DNA of 63,655 nucleotides, counting the filler, from Atractiella rhizophila (Eukaryota), in NCBI GenBank assembly GCA_021432655.1. It is 7 parts of 5 records of this genome, joined end to end, with 100 filler letters (N's around TTAATTAATTAA, not from the genome) between each part and the next. Parts side by side here need not be neighbours in the genome. Positions count along the whole stretch, not along the records: positions 13,712 to 21,032 come from MU271955.1; 6 more parts are not named here. The stretch is one strand, 5' to 3'. The notes under the pieces are model-generated. The model did no database searches and was not told where the DNA came from. It was given only the letters and a program-made list of their open reading frames with translations. The translations under genes were made by a program, and so were the position numbers. Positions 6,591 to 58,382 of this stretch are shown here, in pieces; positions within the stretch are counted from its first letter, which is position 1, and each line of letters starts with the position of its first letter.

Positions 6591-6690
6591 NNNNNNNNNN
6601 NNNNNNNNNNNNNNNNNNNNNNNNNNNNNNNNNNTTAATTAATTAANNNNNNNNNNNNNNNNNNNNNNNNNNNNNNNNNNNNNNNNNNNN
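6591..6690. other. Artificial contig linker (N44-TTAATTAATTAA-N44); identical linkers at 13612-13711, 21033-21132, 26851-26950, 36984-37083 and 51699-51798
   Basis: Six identical 100-nt spacers whose core carries stop codons in all six frames. Genes are truncated at them. Confidence 0.99.
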
Positions 6691-6910: not shown

Positions 6911-7455
6911 NNNNNNNNNNNNNNNNNNNNNNNNNNNNNNNNNNNNNNNNNNNNNNNNNNNNNNNNNNNNNNNNNNNNNNNNNNNNNNNNNNNNNNNNNN
7001 NNNNNNNNNNNNNNNNNNNNNNNNNNNNNNNNNNNNNNNNNNNNNNNNNNNNNNNNNNNNNNNNNNNNNNNNNNNNNNNNNNNNNNNNNNNNNNNNNNNN
7101 NNNNNNNNNNNNNNNNNNNNNNNNNNNNNNNNNNNNNNNNNNNNNNNNNNNNNNNNNNNNNNNNNNNNNNNNNNNNNNNNNNNNNNNNNNNNNNNNNNNN
7201 NNNNNNNNNNNNNNNNNNNNNNNNNNNNNNNNNNNNNNNNNNNNNNNNNNNNNNNNNNNNNNNNNNNNNNNNNNNNNNNNNNNNNNNNNNNNNNNNNNNN
7301 NNNNNNNNNNNNNNNNNNNNNNNNNNNNNNNNNNNNNNNNNNNNNNNNNNNNNNNNNNNNNNNNNNNNNNNNNNNNNNNNNNNNNNNNNNNNNNNNNNNN
7401 NNNNNNNNNNNNNNNNNNNNNNNNNNNNNNNNNNNNNNNNNNNNNNNNNNNNNNN

Positions 7456-8221
7456 ACTGGCCGAATCCAACCAATGTAAGACTCAAGTGTTCCTGCATCG
7501 TTCGACAACGGTCTGAGCAAACGAATAGAGTGAACGGTCTTCACAATGTGAGTCCAATACGCGCCAGTAAAGAATCCACACAGCATCAGCGCCGCCGTTT
7601 GTCCTATTCAAGGCTTTCAGGGAGGATCTGGTTCGCCGCCTTCTGACCTGTTTGCCTTGGCTTGCTTCGCAAATATAATCTGTGTCGACCACCCGCATCA
7701 GAAGTTCTCGAGAAAGATCGTTTCATAAACGACAAACGAGCGAAGTCTTATTGTAAGACGGTCGATTGCAGAAGCGTGTTGTCGCCCCAAAATTCGACAT
7801 TTTCGACGTCATCAATGGAAACAAGAATCTCTCGAACCAGTTCGATTGGTAAACCATTCATGGGGAATCCCATGGATACTCCTAATGGAAGACTTGGGAC
7901 GAGGTCAATGGTCTGCCAAAAAAGACGAAACTCGAATAGTAACCTGAGTAGTTTAGTTCTCGCTGACAATTCCCGTGGTCCAAGTTGTGTTATGGTGGAC
8001 GGGAGACGTGGACAATTTTCTGCTTTGAGAATAATAAGTCAATAACCACTACTTTCCGTGAGTGTTGTGGAGTAGTTGTTCAAGTTGCGGAATATTTTGG
8101 ATGACAACAGGGATTTGAAGTCTCTAAGTTGTGCTCTGTTCTACCCTAGTCGTCACTTGAGGTTACGAAAGCAAAGGAGCAGACAGAGGATTCCACGAAA
8201 CTTTATTTTACAAGAATGCAC
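7456..8221 (-). repeat. Near-identical duplicate of 4865-5629 (5' part and upstream region of the F-box-like gene)
   Basis: Direct alignment by eye. Differences are mostly transitions, plus one extra C near 7785 that shifts the frame. Confidence 0.95.
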
Positions 8222-8382
8222 TTGTCTAGTGCTTTTGAGTGTACAAAAGTGTCATAATGGTGTCGATCATATGGTTCGGGCCTTTTTGGACAGCAGATCC
8301 TAGCTGTGGTAATAGGGGCTGATGAGGTTCTGCCACTTTTAGCTTAACAAGTGCTAGGCAGACGGGCTAGCCACACTCATTT

Positions 8383-11300
8383 ATGGCTCCTACGCCTCCC
8401 TCCGCCGTGGGTGGTTCCCCAGTTCATGCACTCGTCGCGAAGTTCGAAAGTCAACAGCGGGTGGATGGTAGCGGGAAGCAGCAGAATTCTAAGGACGATA
8501 TTGAACGTCTTAGGAGGGGTAGAAGAGTTAGCGTGATTGTAGAAGAGGACAGAGAAAAGGCAAAGGACAGGAGAGGTATGTTACTTCACCTTCTGTTGAG
8601 AACCTGTACATGGACGCGGGCACTTCATTTGTTCTGGTGTGGAATGTGGAGTTGCTATTGAGATGCTAACCCACTTCAGCTCCTTCACGCGAGCTATGCT
8701 TTCATGCGCAAAGTTCTACAGATTCGCTGTCTTCGAAGCTAACGCTGTTGTCTTGTGATGGCTTACAGCGTCTCTCCCAATTCCATCTTCAAGCCGCTCA
8801 CCTGCGCTTGCCTCTCCAACCTCTCCAATAAAACTGAAAACAGTCCTACCAACTGCCCTCCAAAGCCCTAACGCGGTGCGGATTCATCGACATGCCCCAG
8901 CTCCTCCGCGGACCACTTCTCCAGAGCCCATGGCAGCTGAGCATGCGGAACCCTCGAAACGAATACGAAGCGATACGAAACATAATGAACACGAAAAGCA
9001 TTTACCTATCTCTCCTAGGAGGACAGCTCATTCTCCACCTTCGCCGAGAAGGGAAATGAAAGGAGAACATGAGACAAAGTCACGCAAGCATGATATACAC
9101 GAATTGGAACGAGTTACGAACCACGCGAACGACGATCGGAGTGCCAGCAAGAACGTAAGAGAAGTAGGAGGGGTGGAACGGATGAAAGAAAGGAGAATGG
9201 AGGAGGGACCGAATCGCGAACGACCGAAAGATGCCACACAGCCGACGCACAGAAGAGATATCATCACCAACTCTCCCCCGCGCATTCCCAAGGGACAAGC
9301 AACGCATCCCCTCCTCATCCCTCCCACGCCTCTCGAACCAGCCCTTTCTCGTGATGGCCTAGCGCCGCCGTACATGCCTTCACCACATTCGCATCACAAG
9401 AGGAAGGATGCGTTTGACGTCACTCAGGCAACGAGGAGGCTGAAGGCGGAACCAGCGAGAAATTATTTGAATGTAGATAAAGCAGAGAGGATCACGGTGC
9501 GAACGAAAACGGGCGAAGTGGAGGAGGTAAAGGAAGTAACTCCTGAAGAATCGAAATGGAAGCCCACCTCGCCCACATCTGCTGCGACACAACACAAGTC
9601 TCCTCCCAAGCCCGGGAATGAGCAGAAAGCTCCCACTCGAGAGACAACTCGGGAGTCTCCTCAAGGCCCATCTCAAAGCCTGTCTCAACTTAATCACACC
9701 CAGCCTACGCCCGGCAACAAATCTCGCCTCTTAGACCATCCGCTCCGCCCTCCCCCTCCTCTTCCTGCCGAGTATGGACAGATGTCTTCTACACCGCTGG
9801 ATCCACCGTTGCGAACCCCAAAGATTGATTTTTCCCCTTCGTTAGAACGACGGCCATTACGTCCTTCACCTGGACCATTACAGAACGGAAGATCACGTTC
9901 AGGAGATCATTACGGGCACTTAGCGACCCACGGTTCGCCTCGTATGGTTTCTTTTGCTGCCTCTTCGAGGTCAAAATCGATATCGAACCTCTCCATGCTC
10001 ACCAAGGACATTCCTGCGTCTTCGGTCTTCAAATCTGACGCGCTCCCACTCCACCTCCCTGCACTGGATGCCTATCTTAGTGAAATTGGACCTGCCAAGT
10101 TCACGGATCCAGAGCAATTCATGACCCAGAATGGTGACGGAGAGGAGCTGAAGAGGTGGAAAGAGTGGGTACGAGGTGGGGAGAGCGAGGAGCAGAAGGG
10201 GCTTTTTGGGAAGATTGGTGATTGGGTCGGAGGAATTTTTGAGAATGGAACAAAAGGGGAGAAGCTGGAAAGACGGACGTTTAAGAAGTTAGAGGAGGCC
10301 CCGGATGATGAGGAGGATAAGGACGAGTTGGATGTGCCTGAGAAACCCACGATAGTTACGAAGGCTTCAGTCGAGCAACAGTCCTCCACCTCCTCCTCCT
10401 CAAACATTCGGAACCTCATCTTTCCACCTCTTCAACTCATTCCTCCCCGACTTACAATCGCGGATCTTTTCTTAAATCGTTCGAAGCCTCCGCCTGTCCT
10501 GACCCTTGATTCAGTTCTGGGAACAGCCATAGACGGCGTGCTAGGAGCAGAGGGCTCAGCTTATGCTGTTGCCCTTGTCAATGTTGAAATTTTCAGGGAC
10601 TTGATCCAGATGATTGCATACAGCTTGGGACTGATCAGCTCTCGTTTCTTCGGAGTTGCGACCGGCGGAAAACTTGTGTTCCCTAAAGATTCCAAAGACA
10701 TGGAACCATGGAAGCGATTGGTCTTCGTTACGATCCCTGGAATCCTATCCCTGGACTTTATCAGTGCTTTTGGCAAAGCTATCCTCTTCTTCTGGCTCTT
10801 TATTGGGCTCACATTCCTAGGATGCTACGAGTTTTGGAGGATGACAGGCAAGGGTTGGAGCTTCGGAATCGGATGCGGAGACAGCTTACCTTCCTTTGGT
10901 TTCAAAAGGAAGAAAAAGTTGGATTCATCTGGAGAAGGAGCAGGCTCATGCACTAATCTTGAGCCTGAGAAGGAGCATCCACTCAACGAAACGGAGAACA
11001 TGAAGATGTCGATTTCCCACCAGCTTGAAGGGTTTGACGTCGACGAAACTGTACGGGAGAACAGGTCGTTAAATAAGAAGGGATTCAGAGATGCGAGGTG
11101 GTACAAGATTACTGTCGTCTTTATCATCTCCTCCCTATATATGCCGTTGTCTAAGATATCAATCTCGGCTCTCCTCTGGTCTTCTGATTTTTGGGCGGTC
11201 TCGAATCCATACCTCGAAAGCGACTTCCCTACCTTCACGCCTCTGGGACCTCCTGACAAATACCGAGATGCAGACGACTTCTGCTATACGACCACAATGA

Positions 11301-13611: not shown

Positions 13612-13711
13612 NNNNNNNNNNNNNNNNNNNNNNNNNNNNNNNNNNNNNNNNNNNNTTAATTAATTAANNNNNNNNNNNNNNNNNNNNNNNNNNNNNNNNN
13701 NNNNNNNNNNN

Positions 13712-14090
13712 ACACCACAGCACGGATGGATGTCAGTCAACTCATCCATCAAGTAAGTTAAACACTTCGTGATTACACTGGCGTCTAGTTGATGATGAAT
13801 TCTATAGGTTCGACTATTCGAGTGTCTCCTTCGGATTGGACAAGGTTCAGTCTCACTTCCTTCACACAAACAGCAGAGCTCCTCGCTATGTCAAAATGTT
13901 CAAAAGAAATCCTCCCATCGACGGCAGTGGGTGGAAGCAAGGTGTTGAAATAACGTTTTCGCTCCAAGTGCCGTACGTCGAATGCTTTCTCCAGACTTTT
14001 CGAAAAGAAGGAGAGCGATGGGGAATTGAAGGTGATATAGAGGTGTGGAAAGGAGAAGAAAGCAAGATAAACGTAGCCAATGAAGCTTGA
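13712..14090 (+). CDS. 3' end of an unknown protein (5' truncated by contig start)
   Basis: GTAAGT...CTAG intron near 13753-13788, followed by an open exon ending VANEA-TGA and then AT-rich 3' sequence. Confidence 0.5.
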
Positions 14091-15023
14091 AATAAATTCT
14101 CACAGTTCTGTAACGTTCTCCGTTATTTATTCTGCAGTTTTGGGAATATCAAGGAAATTCCTTTAGGTCAGGATGTGCCGAATTTCTGGCTGAAATGTAA
14201 TAAATTCGTTAAAAATTCGAATTTACTACAAGGCAGGGCATCGTGAACTCAAATTATCGCTATTATTTAGCTTCTTAGAATTGTTCCCGAAATCACTCCC
14301 TCAACTTCAGAATGGTTCGGAGTATGGAGTGCACGAGAAGTGTGCCATCCACTTCGCACTAAGTAATGATTAATGAGGTCTGCTGACGTTGAAACAACGT
14401 TCATTGTGGTCCCAAAACACGTTGCCCCGGGTTGCAAGCAATAAAAACGCACCACAATCAGGTTCTCATCCCTCTTTTCAGTTGTTTGCATAAAGTTCCT
14501 CCAACACATTTGAATGATGGGCGATTCTCATACCTGCCACGATCAAAGTATCGGATGCTGGATTGGCGTTACACTTTGTTAGGTGCGCACCGTACTTGCA
14601 TATTGCTTGAAGCAAGGCCAGATCTGAGGCCAACAGTTGATTACGGTGATTTAATTGTAGAAATCGGGAAGCTGAGAGTGAAGTATGCTCGAATGCTGAT
14701 AGAGTTGAAGAATTTGTAAACTTGATGGAAAGGTCGGAAAGACGACGGTCACGTCTTCGAGGCAAGCACAAGCTGACAATCCAAATTCGATCAAAACATA
14801 TCGGTAATATAGTTACGACGAGGTCCTCTACAGAAGCACCTGAGCGCCTGAGCTACGTTGCAGCAAAGTCAGAAATGATGGGCTAAAGCTACATTCTTTA
14901 GTGATCATCTCTGGATACAGTTCTTTCTCTTACAGAAATTTACCTTTGCGATTGTTTAAAGTGCCCTAAGATGTCCTCTCAATTGATCATTGTTCTAGAT
15001 ACCTTCCTAAATCCTCCTCCACG

Positions 15024-16736
15024 TCAATGTGTGATAGGGATTACTGAAAAGAACCCACCAAACTTTATACCACGATCTGCCAGCGCATTCCTTAGCCGGA
15101 TGACGCTCTCGCTTTCTCGCCTCCAGACTCCTGATGGCCCATACACCGTTAACGTCTTCAAACAAGGCATGATAGCCTCAGTGGCCTCTTCGAACGTCAT
15201 TGATAATGTGTCTAGAAAGGTGTCGGTGTCGCTAACAGGCTTTCCACACCATGAATACTCGCTGAGATCAATGACCAAATGCTCCGTCCTCGACGTGGTT
15301 GATTTAAGAATATCGTACATCTTCGGCTCATACCATGTTGCGCTGTCGCTCAACCGCAATTTGAGCTCCGGAAAGTGAGTAAGCTGATTCGTGACAGAAC
15401 AGACGATCTTTGTGATAGTGCTGGTGGGGGAAGGGAAGACAACACCTAGATCAAAACTGTGAGGTATCAATTGTCTATTCACAAGTTGTTCAATGGCATC
15501 TCGACATTTCCGCGCCGTCGCAGGTGAGTCCTCCCCAGCGTTTGTTTTCAGCACCAGAGCTCTGAGAGGTGTCGACGGGAGGAATGATAGGAAGAACTCG
15601 TCAACGAAACTACAATGCCAAAGTGTGACTTCCTGAAGGTGTTCTAGTGGGTGGTATCCTTTTGCCAATTCGGTCCCAAATGACATGCTTATTAAGTGTA
15701 ACTTTCGCAATTCTAGAGATTTGGAAATGAGAGGAAACATCTTGAACAATCGGCATTTGTCGTTCATATTGTGTTTGCCCTCGCTGAAATCAAACATGAA
15801 GGTTTTTAATCGCGGAAGGTGTCCAAAAGGAACCATCAGCCGCTGCTGCTGCACGCTTTCTGTGACTGTAACTCGTAAGTCGAGCAAAGCTTTTGCGAGC
15901 AAATTTGTCACGTCAGCGAGGCCCGACCAAGCTAACTCGTGCAGGCATTCGAGTCTCAAATGGGTGACGTGTAGAGAAGTAGCTTGAGCCGTGAACCTCG
16001 TGACAAAGTTAACCGGAGTGTTCTTTAGAGCCAAATAGAAATTGCGAAGTGTAGTTAAATCGGAGCCAATTGTTTCAATGATCTCGGAAGGAACGTCATT
16101 GTGCCCAACATATAGATAGCTGAGAGATGAAAACAATGCAGCCATTGGAAGATCGAAGCGCAAAGTTCCACGTAACCGCGCCACGTGAAGACTACCAGAT
16201 GAACTACCGAGGTTTGGAAGAAGAGTAGAGAGGTAGAACGGCCGAAATCGTGAAGAGTTTGTCACAGAGAGATTTTGGAGAAAGGGTAGAGCTGGAAACC
16301 TGAACCTCGGGTGCTCGACGCCGATAACATCCCACCAGAGGAGAGAACGAAGGTTCGTGCATCGATCGATGACAGCTTGCCCAAATTCGAGAGGGAGGTC
16401 CTTTTGGTCGTTAGAATCTCCTAAAAAGCGGAGTGTCCAAACAGAACTTGCACCATTCTCATCCCTATCCAAAGCAGCCAAGCACGCTTCCATCTTCGCC
16501 ACTCTCATCTCTGGATCCCTAGATCCTTGACAAACGGAGCGCAGATCAATTACTCGCATAATCAATTGGTTCGATATCTCTTTCCATCTTCGACAAACGA
16601 GAGCAGTTGTGCAGTAAGATCTCCGGGGTAAAAAGCGATTCTTTCCCCAGAGCCAGAAGTTTTCTACTTCGTCGATTGAAACGAGAATTTTTCGTATAAG
16701 TTCCAAAGGCAGGATATCGTTCATTGATTTCGCCAT
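15024..16736 (-). CDS. Intronless F-box/LRR(RNI)-like protein
   Basis: Uninterrupted ORF with LPLELIRKILVSID...ALVCRRWKEISNQL followed by LxxLxL-like repeats (LRSLLW, LQNLSV, LPRLKTF, LRKLHL). Confidence 0.75.
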   Translation of the reverse strand: MAKSMNDILPLELIRKILVSIDEVENFWLWGKNRFLPRRSYCTTALVCRRWKEISNQLIMRVIDLRSVCQGSRDPEMRVAKMEACLAALDRDENGASSVWTLRFLGDSNDQKDLPLEFGQAVIDRCTNLRSLLWWDVIGVEHPRFRFPALPFLQNLSVTNSSRFRPFYLSTLLPNLGSSSGSLHVARLRGTLRFDLPMAALFSSLSYLYVGHNDVPSEIIETIGSDLTTLRNFYLALKNTPVNFVTRFTAQATSLHVTHLRLECLHELAWSGLADVTNLLAKALLDLRVTVTESVQQQRLMVPFGHLPRLKTFMFDFSEGKHNMNDKCRLFKMFPLISKSLELRKLHLISMSFGTELAKGYHPLEHLQEVTLWHCSFVDEFFLSFLPSTPLRALVLKTNAGEDSPATARKCRDAIEQLVNRQLIPHSFDLGVVFPSPTSTITKIVCSVTNQLTHFPELKLRLSDSATWYEPKMYDILKSTTSRTEHLVIDLSEYSWCGKPVSDTDTFLDTLSMTFEEATEAIMPCLKTLTVYGPSGVWRRESESVIRLRNALADRGIKFGGFFSVIPITH

Positions 16737-17035
16737 TGTCTGAAGATTTGGTGAGCGTGTTGCCGCGTCTGTTAAACACTGGCAGCCTTTTGAGGCAAGG
16801 ATTTTTGTCCTTGTTGCTTGATAAATAGAGTTCGGGCTTTTGCGTTCAGAACAAGGAACATTTTCCTTGTTCGGAAATTTTTGGTGCTTCAGCTCTCGGA
16901 AATGAAACAATTACATGCCACATATAAGCAACCCAACTTTCTTCAGTGCATTGCAAGTAGTATACATTCGTCATGACCACTATAGTAGTTGAGAGCTAAG
17001 CAACCATACAGGCACAAAAAATTATGCATGCATGA

Positions 17036-18918
17036 TCATGCAAGGGCACCTTTGATTGAGTACAAGTCAGCTTTAATATCTTTCACGTTGAACAGTAAAC
17101 TCACCAAGAGGGTCCCAAGGCGGCAATTCAACGGCATCCTTGTTCTCCCATACCCTCCTTAGGTCCTTAGGGACAAAGCTCTTATGGGCCACAATCTGGT
17201 ACACAAACTCATCGAACCATCCGTCCGTCTACCCATCGGGCGCAGGGGATCGACATCTTATCTCAACCGACAAGAGGTAAGGGTACGAACCATCATGAAA
17301 TAACCTTTCTCTCCTGGAGTTGGACCCCAAGAGTTCTCAACCCTCCATCTGACAGGTTTTCCGTCTTTGTCGAGGTGAACGGCGGTAATGGTCATCGCGT
17401 GCGTCATGGCCGAATCGCCCATTTGGAGTCGTTCAGATTTGGTCATTCCTTTGGTGGTACCAAAGGCGTTGGATAGGTCGAATAACTACAAACATCCACA
17501 TTCTTGTTCATATCAGTCGGTCAGCGAAGGCGATGGGCAGACCTTGTGGTCCATTAATCCAAGAGTGCGCTCAGAGGATTGTCCAACGTCGCACCCGAAC
17601 CAGACTGTGGACCAGATGCAATGAGTCAGCTAGGAATCATAGAACTCGATGGCAAGAACGGACCAGGTTGGTCGGCTTTGAGGAGGGCGATTGCGACCTG
17701 CTTCATCTTCTCCCTTCATGCAAATTCAATACCCATCTTTTAACATCAGGGTCAACTCACACTCCGGAGTTCACATAGCTGGACATCCCATCAATAAACT
17801 AGTCAGGAGTGAGAGAAGGAGATACGAACCTCACTCTTTCTCCCTCCCACACATTACCAAGATGTTTGACGGTATAGAGTTTCCCATACTCGTTCCTCGG
17901 ATCGTCAATCAAAGAAACCGAGTCCTTAGCCGAGAAAAAGTCGCATTGCTCCTTATAAAACGACAACGGCGTCGCCTTGATCGAATGAAACTTGCCATTC
18001 TTATCGTAATACTCCCACGTGAACTCTTCCACCTTCTTCGGGCTTCCACAGGTGATACAAAGGATGCGATAGACCTCGTCCATCTGCTCGCTCTTCCTCT
18101 TCCTCAACGCCTTCACCGCCAACGCCTTCGCTTCGGCGCGCGAGAGACCTTGAGTGGTGTAAGAGGAGAGGAAAGAGGCGTAGAGACGACGGAGCTCGAG
18201 GGTATATTCTCGCAGCTTGGTCGTGAGGAGTGAATCGACTTTGGAGGAGTTGGAGGAGTTGAAGGACTCTGGATAGACGCTTTGGGGTACTAGACCGTAT
18301 TTCTCGATCAGATTCGAGGCCATGTCCCATTGTCCACCATCTATTTCAGTAGATGCTTCAGATTCATGGAGAAGAGAAAGGCTCGAGACAAAGGACGAAC
18401 CATTCTCAGGTGCTGTGGATAGGAATTGGATCACTCGACTGTCAAGAGGCTCATCGACTAATTCAATCATTGTCTCGAGGTAGCTGTCGATACATTCATC
18501 GGTAAATAGCTGGAGCGTAACAGAGTGGGAGGGGGAAAGAAGACGCACTAGTTGCTCTTCTCAACATGGTCATAGAAGAACAGGTAGCTTCGTTTCTCTC
18601 GTCAGCACAGTGGTCTCGCGAGAACTAGAGAAAGAAACACCTTTGCGAGAGTTGGAAGTCGTCTATCTCAAAAAATCCATCAATTTTATTGGGAGAGGAA
18701 GAAGGGACGAAGAGACGAACCAAGGTTATATTTCTTCTTGAGCCCGATCCTGATCACATTCGTTGTAGCAAAGAGCCAGCATCTGCCTGAGGACATTTGA
18801 CTGGTGACTACATACACCAAAGACTTAATAATTGGTGGAGCAGAGCGAGACTGGGAGGGACGAACTCGGCGTTCCCTCCGTCGAAATCTTGGTGTTATAG
18901 ATATGCAAATCCTCCGCC
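17036..18918 (-). CDS. LAP3: Bleomycin hydrolase / cysteine aminopeptidase (peptidase C1B); its 5' exons lie in the mirrored block at 20677-21032
   Basis: Catalytic QMSSGRCWLFA, DGGQWDM, MTHAM and WRVENSWG motifs, plus the C-terminal PPWDPLGALA-stop, across multiple GT-AG introns. Confidence 0.95.
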
Positions 18919-20188
18919 GTCCCGTTTAGGTTGACAGAGGCGCCATACAGGGGTCGAGCAGAGGAGGCGGTTGGTCGTTCCCTTGCATTAAGTGCCTAAC
19001 GCTTGGATGTTAAGCCCCTAACTCGTCACACTGCGAACGCGTCAACCGTCCTGTAGCCTTCGCCTTCCAGCATAGCAACTTTCCACACCGTTAAAAGCGG
19101 TAAATCTGGCGTGATCTGCTTTCTTAGTCATTTGACATAGTTATGACTTCTGCTAACCACTAGCCCGTGTTTCATCACGTCCACTTGTTGTGACATAGAC
19201 AACCTTTTTTAACCTACCGAAAACGACGGGTCTGCAGATGTCATAAAAGCGTGCTTTTTCTAGAAAGAGCACGATTACCGTGTCAAGGCTGTACTGTCCA
19301 TCCTGGGCTCACGTAAAGATCGTACAGTTTAGATTTTCGTCTTGACTTCCAACGGATTAACTGTGTCTGACCTATAAAAACGGTGAGGACAACTGTATTG
19401 TTTTTCAGTGGGAGAAGGAAAAGTGACAGTCCTACACATTACTTCTAATGTCGAAGATTTAAACCCTTCTGTCTGCGTCATGTTTTTCATAAGTAGTATT
19501 AACCCTTAGTTTAACTCTTTCGCTGTTATGATGCGCAAGACGTATATCGTTGTAGGACTACATATGAGCTCCGAAGAATGGGAACTTGAGACCTATGGGT
19601 ACATTATACAGAGGTCAGTAGGACCATGGAGGTCTTTAGATCTTATGATCGAGATTTCTCCTAAAGTTCCACTGAAGAACTTGAGGTCACGTGGTGTAGT
19701 AGTTGTTTAGCTTCCCTCTGAGTGTAGTCGTAAGGAAGGGCAGGTTATTCGCGAGCACGTCAGGTGTTTGACCAGAAACAGGTGGGGTATCTTCGATGAG
19801 AGAGATTGGTTGTTACGCTTAGGGTGCTAGGTTTCCCGTTCTTTGTCACGTTCGTGGCATAAAAAGGTGAACGGGGGTATAGATGGCTGTAGGTTAGATA
19901 GGCGGTTGAGGAGGTTGCCCGGCATTTCGCGGTGGAAAACTAAACGTCGAGCTGCCTTCCTCTTCCAGGCGCGTCGGTCAAGAGCCAACGAGACTTGCCA
20001 CGCTTAAACGCACGGGTGTCGTCGTCCCCTATCATTCCTAACAACCGCACTCCTAGCCACCCCACGCTTCGGATACCTCTACGAGCTCACCGAGACACGC
20101 GCGGCATCGCTACCCCCTTACGACGTCAAGCTAGAACCCAGCTCCTCCGCACCGACGGACACCTCAGAAGCCGACTGTACCGTCGGTA
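18919..20188. CDS. Hidden LCCL-domain membrane protein, 5' part. Read the + sequence backwards without complementing: exon about 20188-19725, intron 19724-19113, exon 19112-18919
   Basis: Reversed text encodes NWLRGPSPSVELQIK...LALFLALWIVGFALLVRESSF...CTSAYWTGRNAD|CGLNGENC.PFNDTTFRFRCPANCASVTLLNPRIVGSQSVNYVPLLVGGGDELGTYRGDSWICP, with a GTGAGT donor and ACTGAT...CTAG acceptor. A few single-base indels are present. Confidence 0.85.
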
Positions 20189-20676
20189 AAGCACCCTCCA
20201 CCCGTCCCCACGCATCAGACTCATCACACTCGCCTCACCCGCTTCCCACTTCCCCTTCCACTCGTATGTTACGATTTACTCGCAGTCTATAAGAACCCGG
20301 CGGCCCCGTGTTGTAACCGTATAAAGTTTAGAAGGTGCTCCTCTTCCACTCTATGCGGCTTGATAGGAGCGTAAACCTAAGATAGATCGTTGTGACTGAT
20401 CTTCAGGATGTCTACGTTTCCCTATCTGACTTGTACGAAACCGACCCTCCTATGTCCTATGTACCACTTTACTTTATCGTTATGGACCTTCGTTAGGTGT
20501 AGGAGTACACTGGGACACCTCGTTAAAGTTTAAGAATAGTGGACGTAGAATTTCGCTCTGGTTGCTGGTCACACCAGGAGGAGGCTCGTCAGGAGGTCAT
20601 TGGGAATATATTGGGAGTTCCAGGCTAAGACTCGAGGAGAAAAGGGTCTGGTCAGTTTCTTTCGTCGTGCTATTGG

Positions 20677-21032
20677 TACCCTCGGTGTGGAAGCTTCGGT
20701 CAGGTCCTTTTTGGTTCACAGGCTCTTCGTTTCCCTCGAGCTCTGCCGGTGCAGGGAGGAAGCGAGCGAGGTCTAGGCGCTGAGGTTACCTAGAAGGAGA
20801 AGGAGGAGAAGCCTCTCCCCCTTATACCTGGACGCTGTCGACTACAGAGCAAACTGCCTAACTTTCTCACCGTCCTCTTGAACAAGCACAACGGTGAAGG
20901 GAAACTGCTGCGATACACGACTAACACCCTACGGCTTACGCATCGCTCTTAAGCCGAGCGAAGGTCGAGAGGGTCGTGCGACAACAGCTTCGTTCTGACC
21001 TGATAGCGTGAGCGGCCGTCCCTCTCTCACTG
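20677..21032. CDS. LAP3: 5' exons of bleomycin hydrolase (complement of the + sequence read left to right)
   Basis: MGATPSKPVQENQVSEKQRELETATSLLRSLQIRD...DVSFDGLKEWQENF, then a GTTCGT...GCTGAT...TAG intron, then ENSARFQLS/STLLSKQDWTIALAGRERVT (one extra C), continuing into AEDLHIYNTK at 18918. Confidence 0.9.
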
Positions 21033-21373
21033 NNNNNNNNNNNNNNNNNNNNNNNNNNNNNNNNNNNNNNNNNNNNTTAATTAATTAANNNNNNNNNNNN
21101 NNNNNNNNNNNNNNNNNNNNNNNNNNNNNNNNAACCAGCATCTGGATTTTGATTGAACATATGTAGCAAAGAAAATCAAAAGGGGGAGAGGTCACATTCG
21201 AACATATTGCACTGCTCGGGAATTGGGAGTGGGGAGTCGAAGGATGGAAAAACACAGACGTGGATCACGGACAAGGCTTTTGAGATGGATCAAATGAGTA
21301 GAGCGAGATGAAGGGAGAGAGTATATGTTAAGGATCGTGTTTCTTGTTTCTCTGCACAGGATGGAAAGTTGGA

Positions 21374-23513
21374 TCATCGCACACTCTCCGGTCCCATGTT
21401 CCGGTTCTGGAACGTGAATCCTAACACAGCAGACACATCAACTTTCTAACAACTGAAGGAAGAAAGCGGTACGATGAACATACCTTCGAACTGTGCCTGT
21501 ACGCTCTCGCTCAAATGACTGGGTTCAACCACACTATCAACAGGCGCTTCGGCAGTAAACTCTTCATCGAACTGTACCCAAACACCAAACCAATCAAAAA
21601 GGGACTATGAGGAAGCATGTGCGGAGTCACGCACATTAGAAGTATCAGCAGCGCTCTCCACGCTAGGCTTGAACGGTGGCTGGATCTTCTTCGTGCTCAA
21701 AAGTGCCCAATCCAAATGATTCTTGAAGAACGGATGGTTCTTTATATCCTCAGCGCCACGATTTCCCAACCTATTGCGCGTGTGAATACGAGTCGAAAGA
21801 GTCTGAATGGAAGAAACGAACCTCTGCGATGGTTCTCTCGTCAGTAAGCCGGTGAGCACGGAGCGAGCTTCAGCTCCCATGTCGTCGGGGAAAATCAACG
21901 GATTCTGCGACAGCACATATCAGTCCAGTACGCTTGCGCTATCTTCTAGAGTTGGTAGAGAGGAGTACGGACCTGCAGAATCTTCTTGTACATGGTTGGC
22001 ACGTCTTCATCATAGTAAGGTGGTAGTCCAGTCAACATTTCGTACAACAAGACGCCGAGCGTCCACCAGTCCACACTCTTCGTGTATCCCTGACCCAGCA
22101 ACAGTTCAGGCGCGAGATATTCGGGTGTTCCGCAGAAAGCTGTTCAGTATCAAAATGGCATGAGTGAGGATCCCAACATGGAGTAGGGAGGACGAACTGT
22201 TAGTCGTCTCTTGATCCGTCATGTTCAGCTTGCACAGACCAAAATCGCAGAGCGAGATGTGTCCGACGTAATCGAGAAGGATATTTTCTGGTTTCAAATC
22301 CCTACGTTGCAGGATCAGCTGGGCGTTTCCACGCAACCGTATGGAAAAAGAGGAACTTACCGATAAACGACATTGAAGCCATGGAGACATTCAAGGGCAC
22401 ACAACAATTCGGCGGCGTAAAACCTGCTCCTCTCTTCACTGAACCTTCCCTCTCGTTGGAGGTGATGAAAGAGTTCTCCACCATTGACGAAGGCTAGGAC
22501 GAGGTACAATTTATCTGGAGATTGGAAGGCGAATTTGAGAGGAGTGATGAATGGATTGTTGACTTTTGCGAGGACGCTCCTCTCAGCAAGCGTATGGGTG
22601 ACTTCGGATCGATTGACGATGTGCGCTTTTTTAATCGTCTTGAGAGCATAAATCCTCCCCGTATCCGTCTTACGGACCTGCATGACTTTTCCAAAGCTTC
22701 CTTTTCCGATGACCCTCAACAAATCCAGATCTTCGATCCTCAAGCCCTGTTCAGTGGCCTTGAACGCGATCTGTAAATGGAAGTGACCGCCTTGACCAGT
22801 CGAAGAGGTGCCTTCGAACCACTTGTCGATTACTTTCGGACCCAATGCGCCGGCGGGGAGAGTGGTGTTGAAGTCGGGTGTGATGGTGACGGATGAGAGA
22901 AAGACGTCGTCCCCCATGTCATTCCTTTGACCGGGAGGAGCGGAGGAGGTGCGTAGGTAGGCGGAAAGGGTGAGTTCAGAGGAGCGGGACACATCACTTT
23001 TTCCCAAGACCACAAACAATCAATACACCCATCATTCAAAAGGGAGTGGTAAGGATAAAAAAAAGACGCACAAAATAGTTCGAAACATGTAAACCGGCTT
23101 GTCCATCTCCCCTCCCAACGCATCGACGAGCACATCGTTTTTATCAAACTGAAGCACGACGTAAGGGAGCCACCAGCACTGTTTCCTCTGCACACTATCC
23201 CTCTTCCCACCTCCCAGACTGCCAGACATCGAGCCACTGCCCACGGGTACGCTGGAGCCTCCGTGTGCGGCCATCGCCTTTTGGATCGATTGAGGGATCG
23301 TGGCTGGAAGCGGGAGGGAGCGTGCCTCAATGAGGCGTACTGTCAGTTGGCCTGACTTTGGGGTGTTGTCATTGTTGGAGGAGGAAAGAGGAGATGGTAC
23401 AGAGGGGCTGGAGGAGGCAGAGGACACGGTTGGCTTGCTGCTTTCTGTGGTTGTGCTCGTTAGCGATGCATGGATTGGAGAAATAACACACTTTTGCCTA
23501 GTTTCCAGGACAT
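21374..23513 (-). CDS. YPK1: Ypk1/Gad8-type AGC Ser/Thr kinase
   Basis: Starts MSWKLGK; has [31 protein letters not shown], turn motif PVDSVV and hydrophobic motif FEGFTF. Confidence 0.93.
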
Positions 23514-23689
23514 GTTTTGCGTTGCTCTGCTGTGGCAAAAGCAGTGAAAGGGGAAGAAGATGGTCGCTTTGGGGAGCCGTTGATTGGTAACGCGATCGAT
23601 GACTCTTCCATTAACCTTTATCCTTCCCGTGGTCTTCCCGTAATATTAACCACCAATCATTCTCTCTGCCTCAGGAGGATATCGAAAAG

Positions 23690-26172
23690 ATGCCTTCGCC
23701 CAAAGCCTACTGGCTCATCGCTTCGCCTCTAGTAGACAATGATCCGGGAACAATGATGGAACAGTTAAAGGGGGTGGTCGACAAGAAAGGGCTGGGAGAT
23801 GTCAGGGGTTGGAATGGATGGGCAGGGGCAGAGGTTAAGGTGAGCGACTTTCTCCTTGCTATGCTTTCTAGGTGTGATTGGATTGTGGTTTGTGGCTGTA
23901 ATATTCTCCCTTAATAGTGCAGCTCATGAGTGAGAACTTGCAACTTTGGAGATTCAAGCGCGTCTGATCTTATTACGAGGAGGAGGATTATCTGCCTCTG
24001 TCTGTTTTGTTAGGCGGTTCCCATCTCAGTGGCAATAAGTATTGAAGACGAAAGCGCAAGATGTCCTATCGTGAAGTGTTACAGACCGTTCTTTCTCATC
24101 TGATGCTAGCCGCACCAACTTAGTTCAGCATATATCATCTTCTGTGACTGGCTACCTGACTACGTCGATCAGAGGTAGACCTGGATTGTTACAACAATTG
24201 AATGAAGGTCACCTTGTTGGCGATCTCAAGCGAGGGACGGCTTCTGAAGTGAATTCAGCTATCCGTGTATGAGGAAGCAAGCATGTCTGCCCTATCGATC
24301 CGTAGCCAGAGTTCGATAGTGCGAGCTTTACATTTCATGTTTGATGCTCTCCTCTCGTCACGGCGGCTGTGAATGCATTCGTGCATCCAGAGAAGGAATG
24401 ACCTTTGGTGGGCAGCAGCGTTTAAGATTCGATCAATTTCCCTTTCGCGGTTGTTCCTCGTGAGAACTGTGACCAAGGTAGTGTTTTTGCACACAACATG
24501 GGTTTATTCCAGTGGTTGCGTGTCGCTTCAGCAGGACTTGGCATATTGCAGTATTTGAACGCAGACCAAGCAAACGCTCGATTGTGAAATAGTTTTAACA
24601 TGACTTGAAGGAGCTTGATGCTTGATATGATTCTACGCTGATAGGTCTCTCGTCTCCGAAAAGAGGAGAATGAGCTACACGTATAGTTTGCCGTGCATGG
24701 CGTGGCGAATTTTACAGCTCGCACAGCAAAGACTAACCCGTATGCCTCCAGACAGCCAGTCTCTCCAGCCTGCTCACCCTCTCAGAAACGCTCAGCAAAG
24801 CCGACACCACGGCCGTATCCGCCGTGTCGAAGATAGTGGAAACCATCCGCACGCTGGTAAACACTCCATCCGCCTCCTCCTCCGCCCCCAAACAACAGAT
24901 CGACATCTCGAAACATTTGGTGATGGATGACGGCGTCCCATATGAGGAGTATGTCTTCTCGAATGAGGCAACGGCTGGAGGAGAGGGATGGCATTGGAAT
25001 CGAGGGAAGTGGAGAGCTGATGGAAGGAAGCTGGAGGAGGTGGTTGATCAACTTGTGAAGGTGATAATATGTCCCTGTTTTGTCTGGCGAGTTGGAACTG
25101 ATTGTCTAAACAGGACATCACCGCAGTTGACAATATCCACAAATCGAAGTTGCAGAGCTACACTATTGCAAAGGGACAGTTGGCACAACTACAACGCAAG
25201 AAAGTGTGAGTCAGTTCTACTCGTCCTCCCCTTTCATACTCACCTTTGGATCTTTGGATCGTAGTGGAAATCTTGCAACTCGTTCCCTCAACGAGGTCCT
25301 GGATCCTTCAGATTTCTCCAGCACTCGAGACTCTGAATACCTCGATTATGTCCTCGTCGCTGTGCCCAAGTGCGTTGGTTCTGCTCGCGGGAGAGAAAAG
25401 TATACTGACCGGAGGATAGGAATAACCTGAAAGATTTCACGACCAAGTATGAGCGATTGACTTCGATGGTCGTTCCACGTTCAGCTGTGTGAGCTAATAG
25501 AGTTTACATCTTCGAACCCAGTCTGATTAAGGAATTAGGATGCTGGCAGAGGATGACGAGTTCTCCCTTTACAGCGTTGTGGTCTTCCGGAAAGTGAAGG
25601 ACGAGTTTAGTCAGAAGTGCCGAGAGAACAAGTGCGTAACCCCACTTTGTTTCCCAAACCTGACAGCGCCTTGTAAGATTTATACCGAGAGACTACAACC
25701 CGGATCCACAGGTGATTGCGAAGCAGAAAAAGGAGTTTGAAGAATTAGAAAAGAAGGAGAGAGAGCTCTGGGTTCGCCCTTCTACTACAGCAACGAATAG
25801 ATCTGATGTGTGCTTTTTTGACAGTCCGACCTCCTGAGATTATCACGCCTCAACTTTGCGGAATCCTTTCAACTCCTGGTACACATCAAGTTCCTACGAA
25901 CCTACGTCGAATCTGTCCTTCGATACGGTCTACCAGCTGACTATTTCTACGCCGTAATCAGGCCCGAGCCGAAGCAGAGCAAGAAGCTGATCTCCACGCT
26001 CCAAAGTCACTTCGAAGGCGTCGTGCCTCACAGCAATGAGGGTCGTGGGAAGAAGAAAGGGGGAGGAGCAGCAGGGGCGGATCAACTGGTTGGAGAGTTT
26101 GCACAGGTTATGGAGGACGAATGGATGGATTTGGTCGTGTTTGACATTGAAAGGTTTGGGGAGGAAGAATAG
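23690..26172 (+). CDS. VMA5: V-ATPase V1 subunit C
   Basis: YWLIASP...EVK|TASLSSLLTLSETLSK...WHWNRGKWR...GNLATRSL...DSEYLDYVLVAVPK...VESVLRYGLP, over many introns; the first intron is 912 nt. Confidence 0.93.
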
Positions 26173-26491
26173 AATGGACGGACTTGTCGCTAGCAATCGA
26201 GCAGCGGACGGCTTTGTATTCATTAATGATAAAGGAGCAATAAATCTCCATCTCTGTATCATTTCTACTGAATGCGAGGAACTGGGACAAGAAAGACAGG
26301 TTGATCGTGCCGATCTGGTGATTGGCACTTTGATTTTGCACAGACAAGTTCTACGGACCGGGGCCTCCAAGGAAGCAGGTATAGATTTACATCCCTAATA
26401 CTTCGAAGACAATCCGAACCATTATTCCAATCCAAACATTGGGAGAGAAAGAAACCGAGCAAACATTACAACGACTCTGAACAGGTAACAG

Positions 26492-26850
26492 TTAACGGCT
26501 GACCGCCATCTCGTTATCCTCATACGTAAATCCTACAGGCACACCCATCAGACACTCTTTTGTGAAGAAAGACGAGACATGAAGCAGAGGACGCACCTTC
26601 GAACTGTCTCTGGAAGCTCTCCGACAAACCGGAGCTCTTCACGACCGAATCCACCGGCTGTTCCGCTAAGAATTCAGCGTCGATCTACTCCCAAACCTCG
26701 CTCAGCATGCTCGTATCACTCCTCGAGACAAGGAAAAAGAAAACCGACATTGCTAACATCGGCTGGGCTCTCGACCGTCGGCTTGAACGGAGGCTTAATC
26801 TTCCTCATCGCGATCTTGACCCAATCGACCTTCTGAAAGAAAGGTTGAGC
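26492..26850 (-). CDS. 3' end of a second Ypk-like AGC kinase (not in the ORF track)
   Basis: Spliced translation AQPFFQKVDWVKIAMRKIKPPFKPTVESPADVSN|IDAEFLAEQPVDSVVKSSGLSESFQRQFE|GFTYEDNEMAVSR-stop. Both introns sit at the same positions as in the gene at 21374-23513. Confidence 0.9.
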
Positions 26851-26950
26851 NNNNNNNNNNNNNNNNNNNNNNNNNNNNNNNNNNNNNNNNNNNNTTAATT
26901 AATTAANNNNNNNNNNNNNNNNNNNNNNNNNNNNNNNNNNNNNNNNNNNN

Positions 26951-36148: not shown

Positions 36149-36983
36149 CTACCTCTTTCTCTTCCCTCCCACTTTCTTCCAAAAGTATTGCTTGCCTCCT
36201 GCCTTCCTGTTCTCCCTAACAGGTCGGACGAAGTCTACCAATTCCTTCGCTCTTGCCTCATCTGGGTCCTTTTCTGGACAATAATAATATGTGCTTTCGA
36301 TCTCCCTCCCTTCCGCATCCTTCAATCCTTGATTCCCTATCCTCCCAAAGAAGCCTCCGTTCTCCCATCTCTTCCTCAAAATTGCGAGGCAGGGTTCTCT
36401 CCAAATCTCAACCGCCATATCCATATCTTCCTCGGGAGAGACAAGAGTGAGGAGGTCCCTGTTATTGGAAAGGACTTCCCGGATCACTTCGCTTTCTGGG
36501 ACACAGCCTTTAGGGTTGAAGACGATGGCGGTGGCCAGCATTCCTTCGAGAGGGATGTTGGACTTGGAGAGGTGAGAGGAAATTACGGCGCTGTAGTCTT
36601 TCTGAGGCGTTGGCGGTTGAGGAGACGGAACAGGAGAGAGAGGGGAGTCTTCCAGGATCGACGTCGGCGGTTTGGAAACGCGAGTGGGTGTCTTAAGGCT
36701 ATCTGAAGCGACAGGGGGAAGGATAGTAAGGTTGATGACGACTTGTTTTGCTAGCAGCATTTCAAAGCCCCTATCTTCCTCTAAATTACGGCAACACCAA
36801 TCCGCGTCAGCAAGTCTCGGATGATAGTATAGGAACCGACGCACCTTCCCAACTGATCCTAGCTTTCTTCCCGCTCTTGACAACGTAATCATCGACGGTC
36901 ACTCCCGCCTTTCCTTCAACTGCCAGTAAGGCGTATCTACCATCTGCCGCTACTCGAAGTGTACAATGACGACGAGAGACGTG
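36149..36983 (-). CDS. Tos4/Plm2-like FHA-domain protein, 5' truncated by contig end
   Basis: HVSRRHC (FHA-type SRxH) at the contig edge. C-terminal GLKDAEGREIESTYYYCPEKDPD...KQYFWKK resembles the Tos4/Plm2 conserved tail. Confidence 0.75.
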
Positions 36984-37083
36984 NNNNNNNNNNNNNNNNN
37001 NNNNNNNNNNNNNNNNNNNNNNNNNNNTTAATTAATTAANNNNNNNNNNNNNNNNNNNNNNNNNNNNNNNNNNNNNNNNNNNN

Positions 37084-48778: not shown

Positions 48779-51500
48779 TCAAATTATATGCTCTTCTAAA
48801 AAATCGAGTTAACAGAACTAACCTGAAGACAGAACGGAAGAATGACATACCATCCTCAACAGCCTCATCCTCCTCGACCTCGATATCAGGCACTCTCACA
48901 TACTCATGGACCTCATCCCTCGCATTCAAATCGACATTCCGCATACCGAGGATACCAATGAAAGCGCCAATAAGAGCGAGTATCGCCACTCCATTCAAAA
49001 CACGTTGGACATCGGTATAAGCCTCATTGATCCCTACCCGGATTGGGTCTTCCGGAGGAAAGGAGAGAGCGACCGAGAGAGAAGAAACAATGTCTGGAAT
49101 GAGGTATTGCGATGCAGGTGGCAGATGCACCCTTAGTCGAGAAGGCAACAGGGTGGTCCATAAGGCTCCGGAGATGGCACTGCCTAAGGCACCTCCGATT
49201 TGAGTGATGGTGAGGAAGAGCGCAGTGGCACATGCGATGTCTAGAATGGGATCAGCTTGGGCAAGTTGTTGCTGTTAGGCATGTGACGAACCTTGACTTC
49301 CGACGACGCTCTGCACTCCAACCTGTCCAGCGACGGTGGTGAATCCTGCCCTCCTTTGAGCATTTGTGAATGGACAAAGCAATGTGGTGGCACACCTCCA
49401 CCTATTCCCCCTACTACCTGGCTCAAAACCAGCTCCCACGTCGGATTATCCAGTCGACGAAACCGAACCATCATCAGCTCCCCACTAATACCTCATCAGC
49501 GAACGACCTCGATGAGGAAGTTGAGGGAGAGTTAACATGGTATGAATGATGACCCCAATAAGTCCCCAAATTTTGTAACGCCCGGATATCTTCGTCAGAA
49601 TGCCAATGAATACCGATGAGACCGATGCGGTGAAGATGTAGGTCTGGCTTAAGGGCTGTGAGCGCTTTCTCGCCTTTCACAAGAAGGCAGAAAGTAAACC
49701 TGATATATTGAGCATCTCGAGCCGAATGTCCTGCGAACAAAAAGCAAAAACATAGTCAGAAGAAGAGAGGGAGAGACAAACCTCGAGCAACTTGGAGAAA
49801 ACTCGTAAAGTAGGTTTCATAGATGAATTGACTAGCAAAGTGCCAGAAACCAAGACAACATCCAGCAACAATGGTCGTGTTCTTCGCAAGACGAGGTGGT
49901 AGAATCGGATATTTGGATCTTTGCTCGACTCGTGCGAAGAGAGCGAGTGTCAAGAAGCCGAAAAAGAGAAATAGGTAAAGGCGATCTTCGTCCGAGATAA
50001 GCACCTCTCGTACACTGAGCGTAAATACTCACAGTCACCCCAACCTTTCTTCCACTCTGCTCCAACGCTGAGGGGAAATAGGATAAAGGAGCATCCCAAA
50101 GTCAGGAGGAGCATTCCAAAACCATCAAGCTCTCTCCAAACATTCTTGAGCGCGACGCGCAAGCCTCCTTCAGCTCCGAAGGCATCTCCTAGATGGGTAG
50201 GAATGCCTGCTAATTTCTCCACCGATTCTTCATCGCTTTCGACATCGTCCTCTTCCTGCAAAGATCGCAGGAACCGTGCAACTCTGTTCCACTCCCAGAA
50301 AAGCCGAAAGGAGAGATATAATGCTGAGAGTGGGACGAGGACGGCAAAGATAAGATAGGCTATGCGATATAGAGTTTCGCCTCCGAGAAGGAAGAAGTTA
50401 CCGATTGGAGGGCCTGTTGTTGATCTCAGCCCAGGACCACGAACCAAGAGTACGCTTGTGACTTACCAATCCAGGTTGTAAAGAGCCATGGTAGAGATAT
50501 TGTCGAGATGATGAATGCGCGAGAAGTCAAACTTGAGGTGTCTACAGACGAGTGAACTTAAAGAGTACGAGACGATTGATTGCCTACCAGCCACAACAAC
50601 TTGTTGGCTCAGTTGAAGCCCTTGACTTCCCAAAGCCGCCACAATTTTGCCGACCTTTCTTTCACGTCAGAAGAAGAACGAAATCATGGCGGCACCAACG
50701 CACCCCAAACATCTGTATCGAACCAGCAAAAGCTATGAGAACGTAACCTGACCACAAGCGCATCAGGTTTGATCGCTCCTCGCTAAAGGAGAGGAACTAC
50801 CGATGCCATATGTCACTCCGGATAGTGCAATACCCTCTGCACGTCCAAATACGTCTAACACTTTCGCCAAGGGTGGTTTTCCCACGGCAAGAGCAATCTG
50901 TGATTTACGTGTCACCACAACGAGGGACTTCAAGATATTAGTTGCTTACGTTAATCGCCACATATACACTACTGAGGAAGCCGTGTGCTTTGAATAAGGA
51001 TAGGAAGTACGGCTCAATTGTAGGTGTCACATTCGCTTCCTAAAGACACATTATTTTCGATAGAGGTGTAGAGGTTACCGCCTACTAGCGAAGTTGAAAT
51101 CGAGAGGATGTAGACACTAGGGTTGATGTCAGTCAGCTAAACAGAGTGTCAAGTTCATTGTAGTATGCATCATAATTTCAGTCTCTGCGATTCAGAGGTG
51201 AATAATTGCTAAGCTTAAACTTTCCAGCTGTGCTCCTCCTATTGTGACAAACGAACACATGCAAGCATGTATCATGCTTGTCTTTAGGGTGGTCTATCTC
51301 TATGTCTCTGCTCCAAGCCCACGCCTCATTTTGTGGAAAACTTCTGTTGACAGATAGCACAGACATTCGTGTGCGTCGTTGCCATCTCACTCGACAAATA
51401 AACAAAATAAGGGACGAGACGCAAACGAGACCACCCAAATCCTATTCCATCCCACCTAGAGGAGCAATTCTTCAACTACTCCTCTGGTTACTGCTCGCGG
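48779..51500 (-). CDS. MFS transporter, siderophore-iron (SIT/ARN)-like; 5' end unresolved near contig end
   Basis: AVGKPPLAKVLDVFGRAEG, QQVVVADTSSLTSRA, PWLFTTWIGPPIG, ELDGFG and IGSAL motifs typical of 14-TM SIT/ARN transporters; many introns. Confidence 0.82.
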
Positions 51501-51798
51501 TTTCCAATTAAAGACAATTCAAGTTTGTGAGTCACTGTCGGCTGTGTCAATGGAGAATGCAGACAAGATCTCGGACGACGCCAGTGGCGTAAAGATGGCA
51601 ACAGTATTCACTTCAAATATGTTCTAGGCTATTCTGGGTGAGTGGGCAAGCTTGGGCCTTGGAATACGACGAATGTGGTGGGACGGTCTAAGGACGTCNN
51701 NNNNNNNNNNNNNNNNNNNNNNNNNNNNNNNNNNNNNNNNNNTTAATTAATTAANNNNNNNNNNNNNNNNNNNNNNNNNNNNNNNNNNNNNNNNNNNN

Positions 51799-56500: not shown

Positions 56501-58382
56501 GAATGTGGAGATGACGATGCAAAATTGTTGTACGGCTGCGGGGAGGAAGGTGATTGATAAGGTTGTGAGAACGGAACAGGGTAAGGCGCTTGCGCAGGGG
56601 ATGAGGGAGATTGATATGGATGCTGATTTGAAGGGGGAGCTTTATAAGGATAGATATTCGGGCTACCTGGAGCTGGACTAGTGGGAGGAAGTGTGGGCGA
56701 ATATGATCCTCCGTTCTGATAGGCGAAAGGCGCTGTAGGAGGTTCTAAGGCTGGTGCCGAGACGGGAACTTGCATTGGAGAGTAGACAGGTTGGATCGGT
56801 GCTGGAGAGCTTGCGTAGCCCCTGGCAGCATCCCAAGGAGCAGGCGATGGAGAGGGTCCCAAACTCCCGTAGTTGACGGATTGTTGGGGGATCTGAAAGT
56901 ATTGTTGCCCGCCAGGAGAAAAATCTGTAGCACCAGGAGACTGAGAGTGATACGACACACTTCCAAAGGAATTCTGGTTGTAGCCAACGGGGCCGTGGTT
57001 GTATCCTTGCTGCAAGTCGGGGGAAGTGAGATTGGGATCAAACTTGTGGCCCTCTGGAGGGACGGCAAGAGGATGCAAGACAGTAATTGGCACTTCGACC
57101 GCCAGCTTTTTGTCGAACATTCCACCTCCCAGTTCGACTCCAACGTAACATCCGATCTCAAACAGCCGGCCCCCTTTAACTGTCCACAACTCTCCCTCTA
57201 ACGATCCATTCTTCTGCCTTCCTCCAATTCGAGGTAGCTCAAGAGCAAGATGAACCTCCTTCCATTCACGAGAGGGAGGAAATTCAAAGGCGCTTCCACG
57301 GAATGGATGGGTTAGGACAACTTCGGTAATCTGTGGCGGGGGAGCGTTGCTGGTGTCGGAAGGAGGGAGGAGTAGGCGTCGTGAGAAACTCATGACCAAT
57401 CCAGAGGCCTGCACTCCCCGAGTCAGTCACAAGCACGTTCAACCAAAGACTGAAGATGCACAGTTTTCTTCCCGCCATTTCTAACTTGCACCACCAAATC
57501 AACTTTGCCATGTCTCCCCACCTCTCCACCGCTCGGACTTTCTTCTCCGTTCTCCAACCTTCCTGGTTGCCTCCAAAACGCGGACCTAAGCAGCCTGACT
57601 TTGACTTCTACCTGCTCTCCCCGCGGTCCTTTCATGTCCCTTCCCTCAACGCTCTTCCAAAACCTCTCTTTCTTCCATTCACCCTCCCTCTGTCCATGCT
57701 CCCATCCCCAGTCCTCGACCACAAAAATTTCTAACCGTTTCGTCACCAAACTCCTTTCTCCTCCTTTATTCCCTTCCGCCCCAAGTGGTAGACCGTCGGG
57801 ACCAATCTTTACCCCCGTGAGGACTTGACAAGTTGCTCGTAGCTCCCAGCGAACATTCGCGTTTGCGCCGAGAGTGAACGTCCCGGGAGGACCGTAGAAA
57901 GTTTCTTGCGACTCTTCGGGGTCTTCGGAGGGAGCGAGGAAACCGCTGGGTATAGGAAACTGGAATTGGAAGCGTGTTCGCCCTTTCAGGCCAGGATAGT
58001 AGTGACCGCCAATAGGTGACGTGGCCTTCACGGCGTTAGAGGGGGGGAGACCGTGTCCTTGAAAGAGGACAGTCCGAGTGTGGAAGGTGCGAGTAGAGCT
58101 GTGGTCCAGAGATCTCAGCTCTAGAAGATACGTAATGCACATCAACATCTCTGTCACGCCTGACTATTCGCAGTGTAATCTGAAGAGACGCGTACCTTCG
58201 ATCCCCTTGAGCTCGATACCAATTTCTCCCAACCAAATAGCGTTGCTTTTCTCGCATCGGACCTCCAAAACACCATCGATTGTCAGGCCTGTCCTAGCTA
58301 GATACACGGCGCGCGCGGGTAAAACCGAAAGTTTGAGAAATGGGTGTGAGCCCATGGCGTTCATAGGCATTGAAGGCTGCAT
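53532..58382 (-). CDS. Arrestin-fold protein with a very long Pro/Ser-rich C-terminal region
   Basis: IDGVLEVRCEK...IGIELKGIE|E...GRTRFQFQFPIP...VRWELRAT is an arrestin-N-like beta-sandwich pattern. ORFs 57423-58157, 53926-57414 and 53532-53933 are linked by short introns. Confidence 0.7.

Follow-up and report, generated by a model that had tools for sequence, protein, structure and literature searches.

A 2.1-kb block at a contig end of Atractiella rhizophila is written in mirror order, probably through a half-completed reverse-complement

Introduction

In the stretch of Atractiella rhizophila DNA analysed here (63,655 nt from assembly GCA_021432655.1, hereafter called the window), a gene for a peptidase C1B (bleomycin hydrolase) runs on the minus strand and is cut off abruptly about 98 codons short of its start, at the edge of a block of about 2.1 kb that reaches to the end of the contig. 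The question raised by this locus is what the letters of the block represent: rearranged DNA, unrelated DNA, or ordinary DNA that has been written in the wrong order. The window consists of seven pieces united by six identical linkers, each made up of N44, TTAATTAATTAA and N44, where TTAATTAATTAA is a 12-letter word with stops in all frames. Apart from the linkers, a gap of 545 N is found at 6911-7455. The main features are as follows.

17097-18915, minus strand: correctly written part of the peptidase C1B gene, corresponding to residues 99-515 of the protein P0001 (KAH8923078.1, Atractiella rhizophila), with many short introns
18916-21032, no strand assigned: mirrored block, delimited by homology, the k-mer sign flip, the loose ends of four sequencing runs and the choice of edge
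6591-6690, 13612-13711, 21033-21132, 26851-26950, 36984-37083 and 51699-51798: six identical 100-nt linkers

Results

Homology returns when the block is reversed without complementing

To the left of the block the peptidase gene is well supported. Three of its exon frames matched Pfam family PF03051 with 167, 83.6 and 34 bits (cut-off 22). Over residues 99-515 its spliced translation agrees with P0001 to about 98%, the differences being eight substitutions and one 6-residue gap that depends on the chosen intron, and no frameshift is needed. The PF03051 match of the written gene begins only at about profile position 58, and the tblastn alignment of P0001 ends with residue 99 at position 18914; the first ~98 codons are thus lost at the block edge. 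With regard to the 6-residue gap, the single 116-nt intron chosen at 17709-17826 drops six residues of P0001, and this region is probably two short introns around a micro-exon. In the DNA contigs of two public sequencing runs (X1 and X2, see below) the same region differs from the window by a joint that skips 93 nt.

The block was then read both as written and reversed without complementing. As written, its longest stop-to-stop frame was 117 aa, and none of its 17 ORFs of at least 50 aa reached the Pfam cut-off (a single chance-level match had an E-value of 0.042 and 14.6 bits against a cut-off of 27). Rfam gave no match to the block as written, and the best tblastn alignment of P0001, both strands included, had an E-value of 7.7. 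When the letters were reversed only, the longest frame increased to 207 aa, and P0001 aligned over residues 1-97 with an E-value of 1e-21. Of the first 98 residues of P0001, 92 lie inside exact-match segments, and the last aligned base is base 3 of the reversed block, where the reading frame agrees with that of the exon on the left. Homology that is absent from all six frames is therefore brought back by reversal alone. These results agree with the initial annotation, which had seen no credible gene in the block as written, had described an in-frame junction upon reversal (here the exact segment of residues 79-114 through the edge 18915|18916) and had predicted a peptidase C1B match on the reversed block.

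A genuine chromosomal inversion or rearrangement that broke the peptidase gene in this isolate would explain why the gene ends so abruptly at the edge. However, an inverted segment is a reverse complement and would leave the missing exons on the other strand, whereas the tblastn search of both strands gave nothing better than the E-value of 7.7. Since this search rules against exons on the opposite strand of the written block, we regard an inversion as very improbable. Another explanation is that real but unrelated DNA (a transposon, foreign DNA or a non-coding spacer) was inserted or misassembled at this place, the mirror reading being a coincidence. The lack of any family match as written is in line with this, as is the lack of similarity between the block, in either reading, and the rest of the window. 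A mirror homology of 1e-21, in which 92 of 98 residues are exact and the junction is in frame, is, on the other hand, difficult to reconcile with coincidence, and further evidence against unrelated DNA is given below.

Word asymmetries change sign at the edge of the block

Strand-symmetric word asymmetries occur in natural DNA. In this window AT is favoured over TA with a log-ratio of 0.45, and GAT/ATC over their reversals with a log-ratio of 0.70. We made use of these asymmetries by scoring each stretch against its own reversal, as a log-ratio under a 4-mer model trained on the remainder of the window. All seven 500-nt windows in the block had negative scores (-8.5 to -14.6), whereas the 230 windows of this size outside the block had a mean of +9.5 (standard deviation 4.4, minimum -2.8). 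Negative scores were also obtained for all 36 windows of 300 nt in the block, which included the 25 most negative ones of the whole window, and for 10 of 10 windows of 200 nt. The scores of the block and of the other 61 kb do not overlap, and the edge is placed within a few bases: the cumulative score reaches its top at 18920 and then declines to the contig end. The signal of the block is carried mainly by AT over TA and similar asymmetries, and the asymmetries between words and reversed words are opposite in sign to those of the rest of the window.

The sign flip at the block edge is not a matter of chance. It also bears on the two explanations above: an inversion would not flip a strand-symmetric statistic, and a composition with exactly the opposite sign to that of the genome would not be expected of unrelated DNA. 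Elsewhere in the 63,655-nt window, none of the pieces showed a mirrored signal in the 4-mer reversal statistic. Isolated, weakly negative 200-nt windows at 8001-8750, 50751-51500, 36600-36983 and 57500-59000 were considered as mirrored spots and rejected as noise.

Position of the two edges

The right end of the mirrored block is the contig end, directly adjoined by an artificial linker. With a left edge at 18916, the block comprises 2,117 nt and closes the piece 13712-21032, right before the linker at 21033-21132. The left edge is uncertain by 3 nt. If the edge is set at 18918|18919, the corrected peptidase acquires an extra alanine codon that is found neither in P0001 nor in any of the four public runs described below, whereas an edge at 18915|18916 makes residues 79-114 of P0001 one exact segment across the junction. 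The letters GCC at 18916-18918 can be assigned to either side of the junction; when they are given to the block, the extra alanine codon disappears. The block is therefore more likely to be 18916-21032. The initial annotation, which had placed it at 18919-21032, was right about the mirror order, but its left edge is less parsimonious than 18916.

The missing 5' part of the peptidase gene

After mirror correction, the block supplies the start of the peptidase gene in the following parts; the second exon part carries on from 18915 in the normal minus-strand orientation.

20677-20882, no strand assigned: peptidase exon 1 with the start codon; the ATG is the complement of written 20677-20679, and the exon contains two 1-nt indels
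20883-20944, no strand assigned: peptidase intron, 62 nt, GT..AG, beginning with GTTCGT after mirror correction
20945-21032, no strand assigned: first part of peptidase exon 2, read as the complement of the written letters from left to right

The start GTTCGT is common to the 62-nt intron and four of nine RNA-supported introns, and the fungal genes of the window have many GT..AG introns of 51-78 nt. A GT..AG intron at the correct place also speaks against unrelated DNA. In the reversed block, a TATA-like word lies 71 nt upstream of the peptidase ATG, but this word is a letter palindrome that is the same in both reading directions, and it carries no evidential weight. The ATG, the normal intron and the TATA-like element listed in the initial annotation could thus all be located, the last of them being uninformative. 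The approximately 70 codons described there as open are indeed open, though only by way of two 1-nt indels that compensate each other; the true reading requires three frame changes.

Searches for counterparts of the locus gave the following. Among proteins of 139-443 aa, where the annotated protein of the source was sought, none exceeded 56% identity. The neighbouring ORF has frames of 570 and 566 aa, which were absent from the protein collection searched. A metagenome search for a syntenic natural locus yielded 70 loci, the best of them 50% identical and with 186 nt upstream.

Indels accumulate in the block

Comparison with P0001 revealed three 1-nt indels within 294 nt of coding sequence in the block:

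20704-20717 (written), exon 1: insertion of 1 nt, in an A-run
20813-20828 (written), exon 1: deletion of 1 nt
20964-20979 (written), first part of exon 2: insertion of 1 nt, in a C-run

At least two of the three are located at homopolymer runs, and the first two cancel each other. Outside the block, over about 4,400 nt, no frameshift was found in the other 417 codons of the peptidase or in a 431-codon kinase gene, and a 628-codon frame at 15024-16910 was open. If indels were evenly spread, the probability of finding all three in the block would be about (294/4722)^3, or about 2e-4, although this excess consists of three events only and contig ends are often of low quality anyway. Because the indels occur in the block and none outside it, the block looks like a separate, lower-quality piece that has a history of its own.

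These indels are relevant to the possibility that the reversal was deliberate or took place downstream of the deposited record, either as a decoy or control block or as a slip in building the window or a pseudo-scaffold; in that case the artefact would have arisen outside the assembly. Six identical artificial linkers mark the window as an edited construct, and the block reaches exactly to one of them. Moreover, reversed non-complemented DNA is a standard decoy, as described in a preprint (bioRxiv 10.64898/2026.04.14.718546). The uneven distribution of the 1-nt indels, with three in the 294 coding nt of the block and zero over about 4,400 nt outside, points in contrast to a piece with a separate past and not to an arbitrary stretch that was reversed later. 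On balance we find a deliberate or downstream reversal rather unlikely.

A divergent second gene in the corrected block

The remainder of the block, when corrected, contains long frames on the strand opposite to the peptidase (here called gene X).

18916-20321, no strand assigned: 5' part of gene X, for which the written letters are taken uncomplemented from right to left; long frames of up to 207 aa, truncated at the true contig end
20322-20676, no strand assigned: presumed divergent promoter region between the peptidase and gene X, with the TATA-like palindromic word at about 20606-20611

The long frames extend to the true contig end; a hydrophobic stretch lies within them, and their end is rich in Cys. 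The divergent second gene of the initial annotation thus holds as far as long frames are concerned, and only after mirror correction. The Cys-rich end seems, as judged from the reading frames, to involve at least one further frame change, and it may resemble the start of the core of an LCCL domain (PF03815), to which the initial annotation had expected a match in the reversed block. An HMM was built from 21 bacterial LCCL domains, which were gathered in successive searches (0 of 5 genomes, then 7 of 401 and 6 of 401). It gave no match in 62 corrected or 63 as-written ORFs; nearly all of the bacterial matches begin at about profile position 30, and the contig is estimated to end about 15 positions on. 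Over the 1,579 ORFs of the window, the HMM produced only E-values of 1 or more. A motif search by regular expression revealed no continuation of gene X elsewhere in the window, and tblastn of the corrected gene-X frames against the 70 metagenome loci gave no match.

The next piece of the window contains a gene for an AGC-type kinase that matches P0148 (KAH8923080.1) in 429 of 431 residues and ends 244 nt from the start of that piece. KAH8923078.1 and KAH8923080.1 share one public A. rhizophila contig of 88,447 nt, and the order of the pieces in the window (peptidase, then kinase) therefore follows that contig. As judged by the order of the accessions, gene X is probably the gene between these two on the public contig. 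The same contig also encodes a second protein of the 90% cluster of P0148, namely P0268 (KAH8923082.1, 551 aa). The piece 21133-26850 closes with a second, diverged AGC kinase match (26595-26847), which concerns the C-terminal part and is 56-72% identical to residues 354-417 of P0148.

Public reads continue across the edge in mirror order

Public sequencing runs were searched for the region 16805-21032. Part of it was found in 14 runs, the highest share of words being 0.33, and four of these (X1-X4) were examined. In their sequence near the edge, as many as 14 of 353 letters deviate from the window, so the four runs represent relatives or another haplotype and are not proven to be the source. 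In all four runs, a contig agrees with the window up to 18916 and then continues with 48 to 255 letters that are unlike the written sequence. In X1 and X2, 28 of the 30 letters of an overhang consensus agreed with the mirror of the last letters of the block; in X3, 26 of 30 did. Past the edge, the natural DNA or RNA of these runs thus reads as the written letters do in mirror order. The contigs of X3 and X4 are spliced and RNA-like, and they supply the intron joints of the peptidase gene; the sequence beyond the edge is therefore transcribed in relatives. As for coverage, X1-X4 covered 0 of 15 bins in the block against 13 to 15 of 15 to the left of it, but the zero cover is not counted as evidence.

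Over 16805-18916, the contigs of X1 and X2 display a further feature: a single sample holds, in alternation, contigs that equal the window and contigs that deviate from it by up to 4%, some of them at about half the depth. This suggests that two haplotypes or strains are present in that sample.

The block is accordingly written in mirrored letters from 18915/18916 (±3 nt) to the contig end, and the mirror of these letters is the natural order in relatives. The mirror-order continuation of the contigs from four public runs also weighs against unrelated DNA, which is refuted by the overhangs together with the mirror homology and the exact segments; we consider it extremely improbable. There is, finally, the idea that the isolate truly carries 2.1 kb of mirror-order DNA, generated by some biological or chemical process that copies a sequence reversed without complementing. 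The read evidence comes from relatives or another haplotype, and this alone leaves the idea some room. No polymerase or recombinase is known that yields DNA in mirror order. Furthermore, a mirror copy would be non-functional, yet the 92 of 98 identical residues mean that it has not diverged, and it would have to end exactly at the contig end and a linker while relatives have the natural order. We give such an origin practically no credence.

Discussion

Origin of the block

We consider it likely that the block is an in-silico half reverse-complement, introduced in a joining or orienting step, and that it represents no real genomic feature. The initial annotation had likewise proposed an artefact (of scaffolding, gap-filling or data handling) at the end of a contig, hiding two gene parts, and this reading is upheld by the restored homology, the k-mer flip, the four runs with the mirror sequence and the adjoining linker. 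Reversing a sequence without complementing it is the same as complementing it without reversing it, viewed from the other strand. The history could then be as follows. A terminal piece of about 2.1 kb, genuine DNA of an Atractiella-like fungus, would have been derived separately, with lower quality and in the opposite orientation. It would have been joined during extension or merging, or when pieces were ordered and oriented for the record or for a pseudo-scaffold. If the necessary flip was only half done, so that the piece was complemented but not reversed, exactly the written letters would result. The position at a contig end, the base-perfect join and the poorer quality all fit such a half-completed flip. 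On this basis we infer the existence of a separate piece, and a joining or orienting step as the likely source of the error.

Two points stand against a half reverse-complement from joining or orienting. One of eight window pieces is mirrored, while a general orientation bug would be expected to affect about half. In addition, the read evidence stems from relatives or another haplotype (X1-X4). To our knowledge, no program makes this error. A full-text literature search, with partial journal coverage, found reversed non-complemented DNA as control or decoy only, and no partial mirrored blocks inside assemblies.

Consequences for annotation

Because of the block, six-frame and alignment analyses miss codons 1-98 of the peptidase C1B gene as well as its promoter, and likewise the 5' part of gene X. 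It represents no biological novelty in the organism; its value is that of a quality-control case together with a simple statistic that detects it. Errors of this kind escape BLAST, gene finders and six-frame translation, whereas the log-ratio of words to reversed words is a cheap quality screen that can be applied to whole assemblies. It may be that some widely used joining or orienting program makes half reverse-complements systematically. If so, many public draft assemblies would hide genes in mirrored contig ends, which the k-mer reversal statistic would detect, and database curators should hear of it.

Comparison with known systems

With respect to P0001, the peptidase of the window is an orthologue or allele. 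The two are about 98% identical over residues 99-515, and 92 of the 98 N-terminal residues are exact once the mirror is corrected; the differences are eight substitutions outside the block and three 1-nt indels inside it.

The closest parallel to the block itself is found in decoy genomes, in which reversed, non-complemented sequence is in use, according to the preprint (bioRxiv 10.64898/2026.04.14.718546). In both cases the order of the letters is reversed while the bases are kept, and homology, ORFs and splice signals vanish in six frames and return on reversal. Asymmetries such as AT over TA flip likewise. The difference is that decoy reversal concerns a whole record, whereas here it is confined to the last 2.1 kb of a single contig, whose join to the correctly written sequence is perfect to the base. 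With ordinary misjoins and inversion errors, the block shares its location at a contig end, beside a join, and its lower-quality sequence. An ordinary misorientation, however, is a reverse complement and is still seen by alignment tools, whereas this block is invisible to them.
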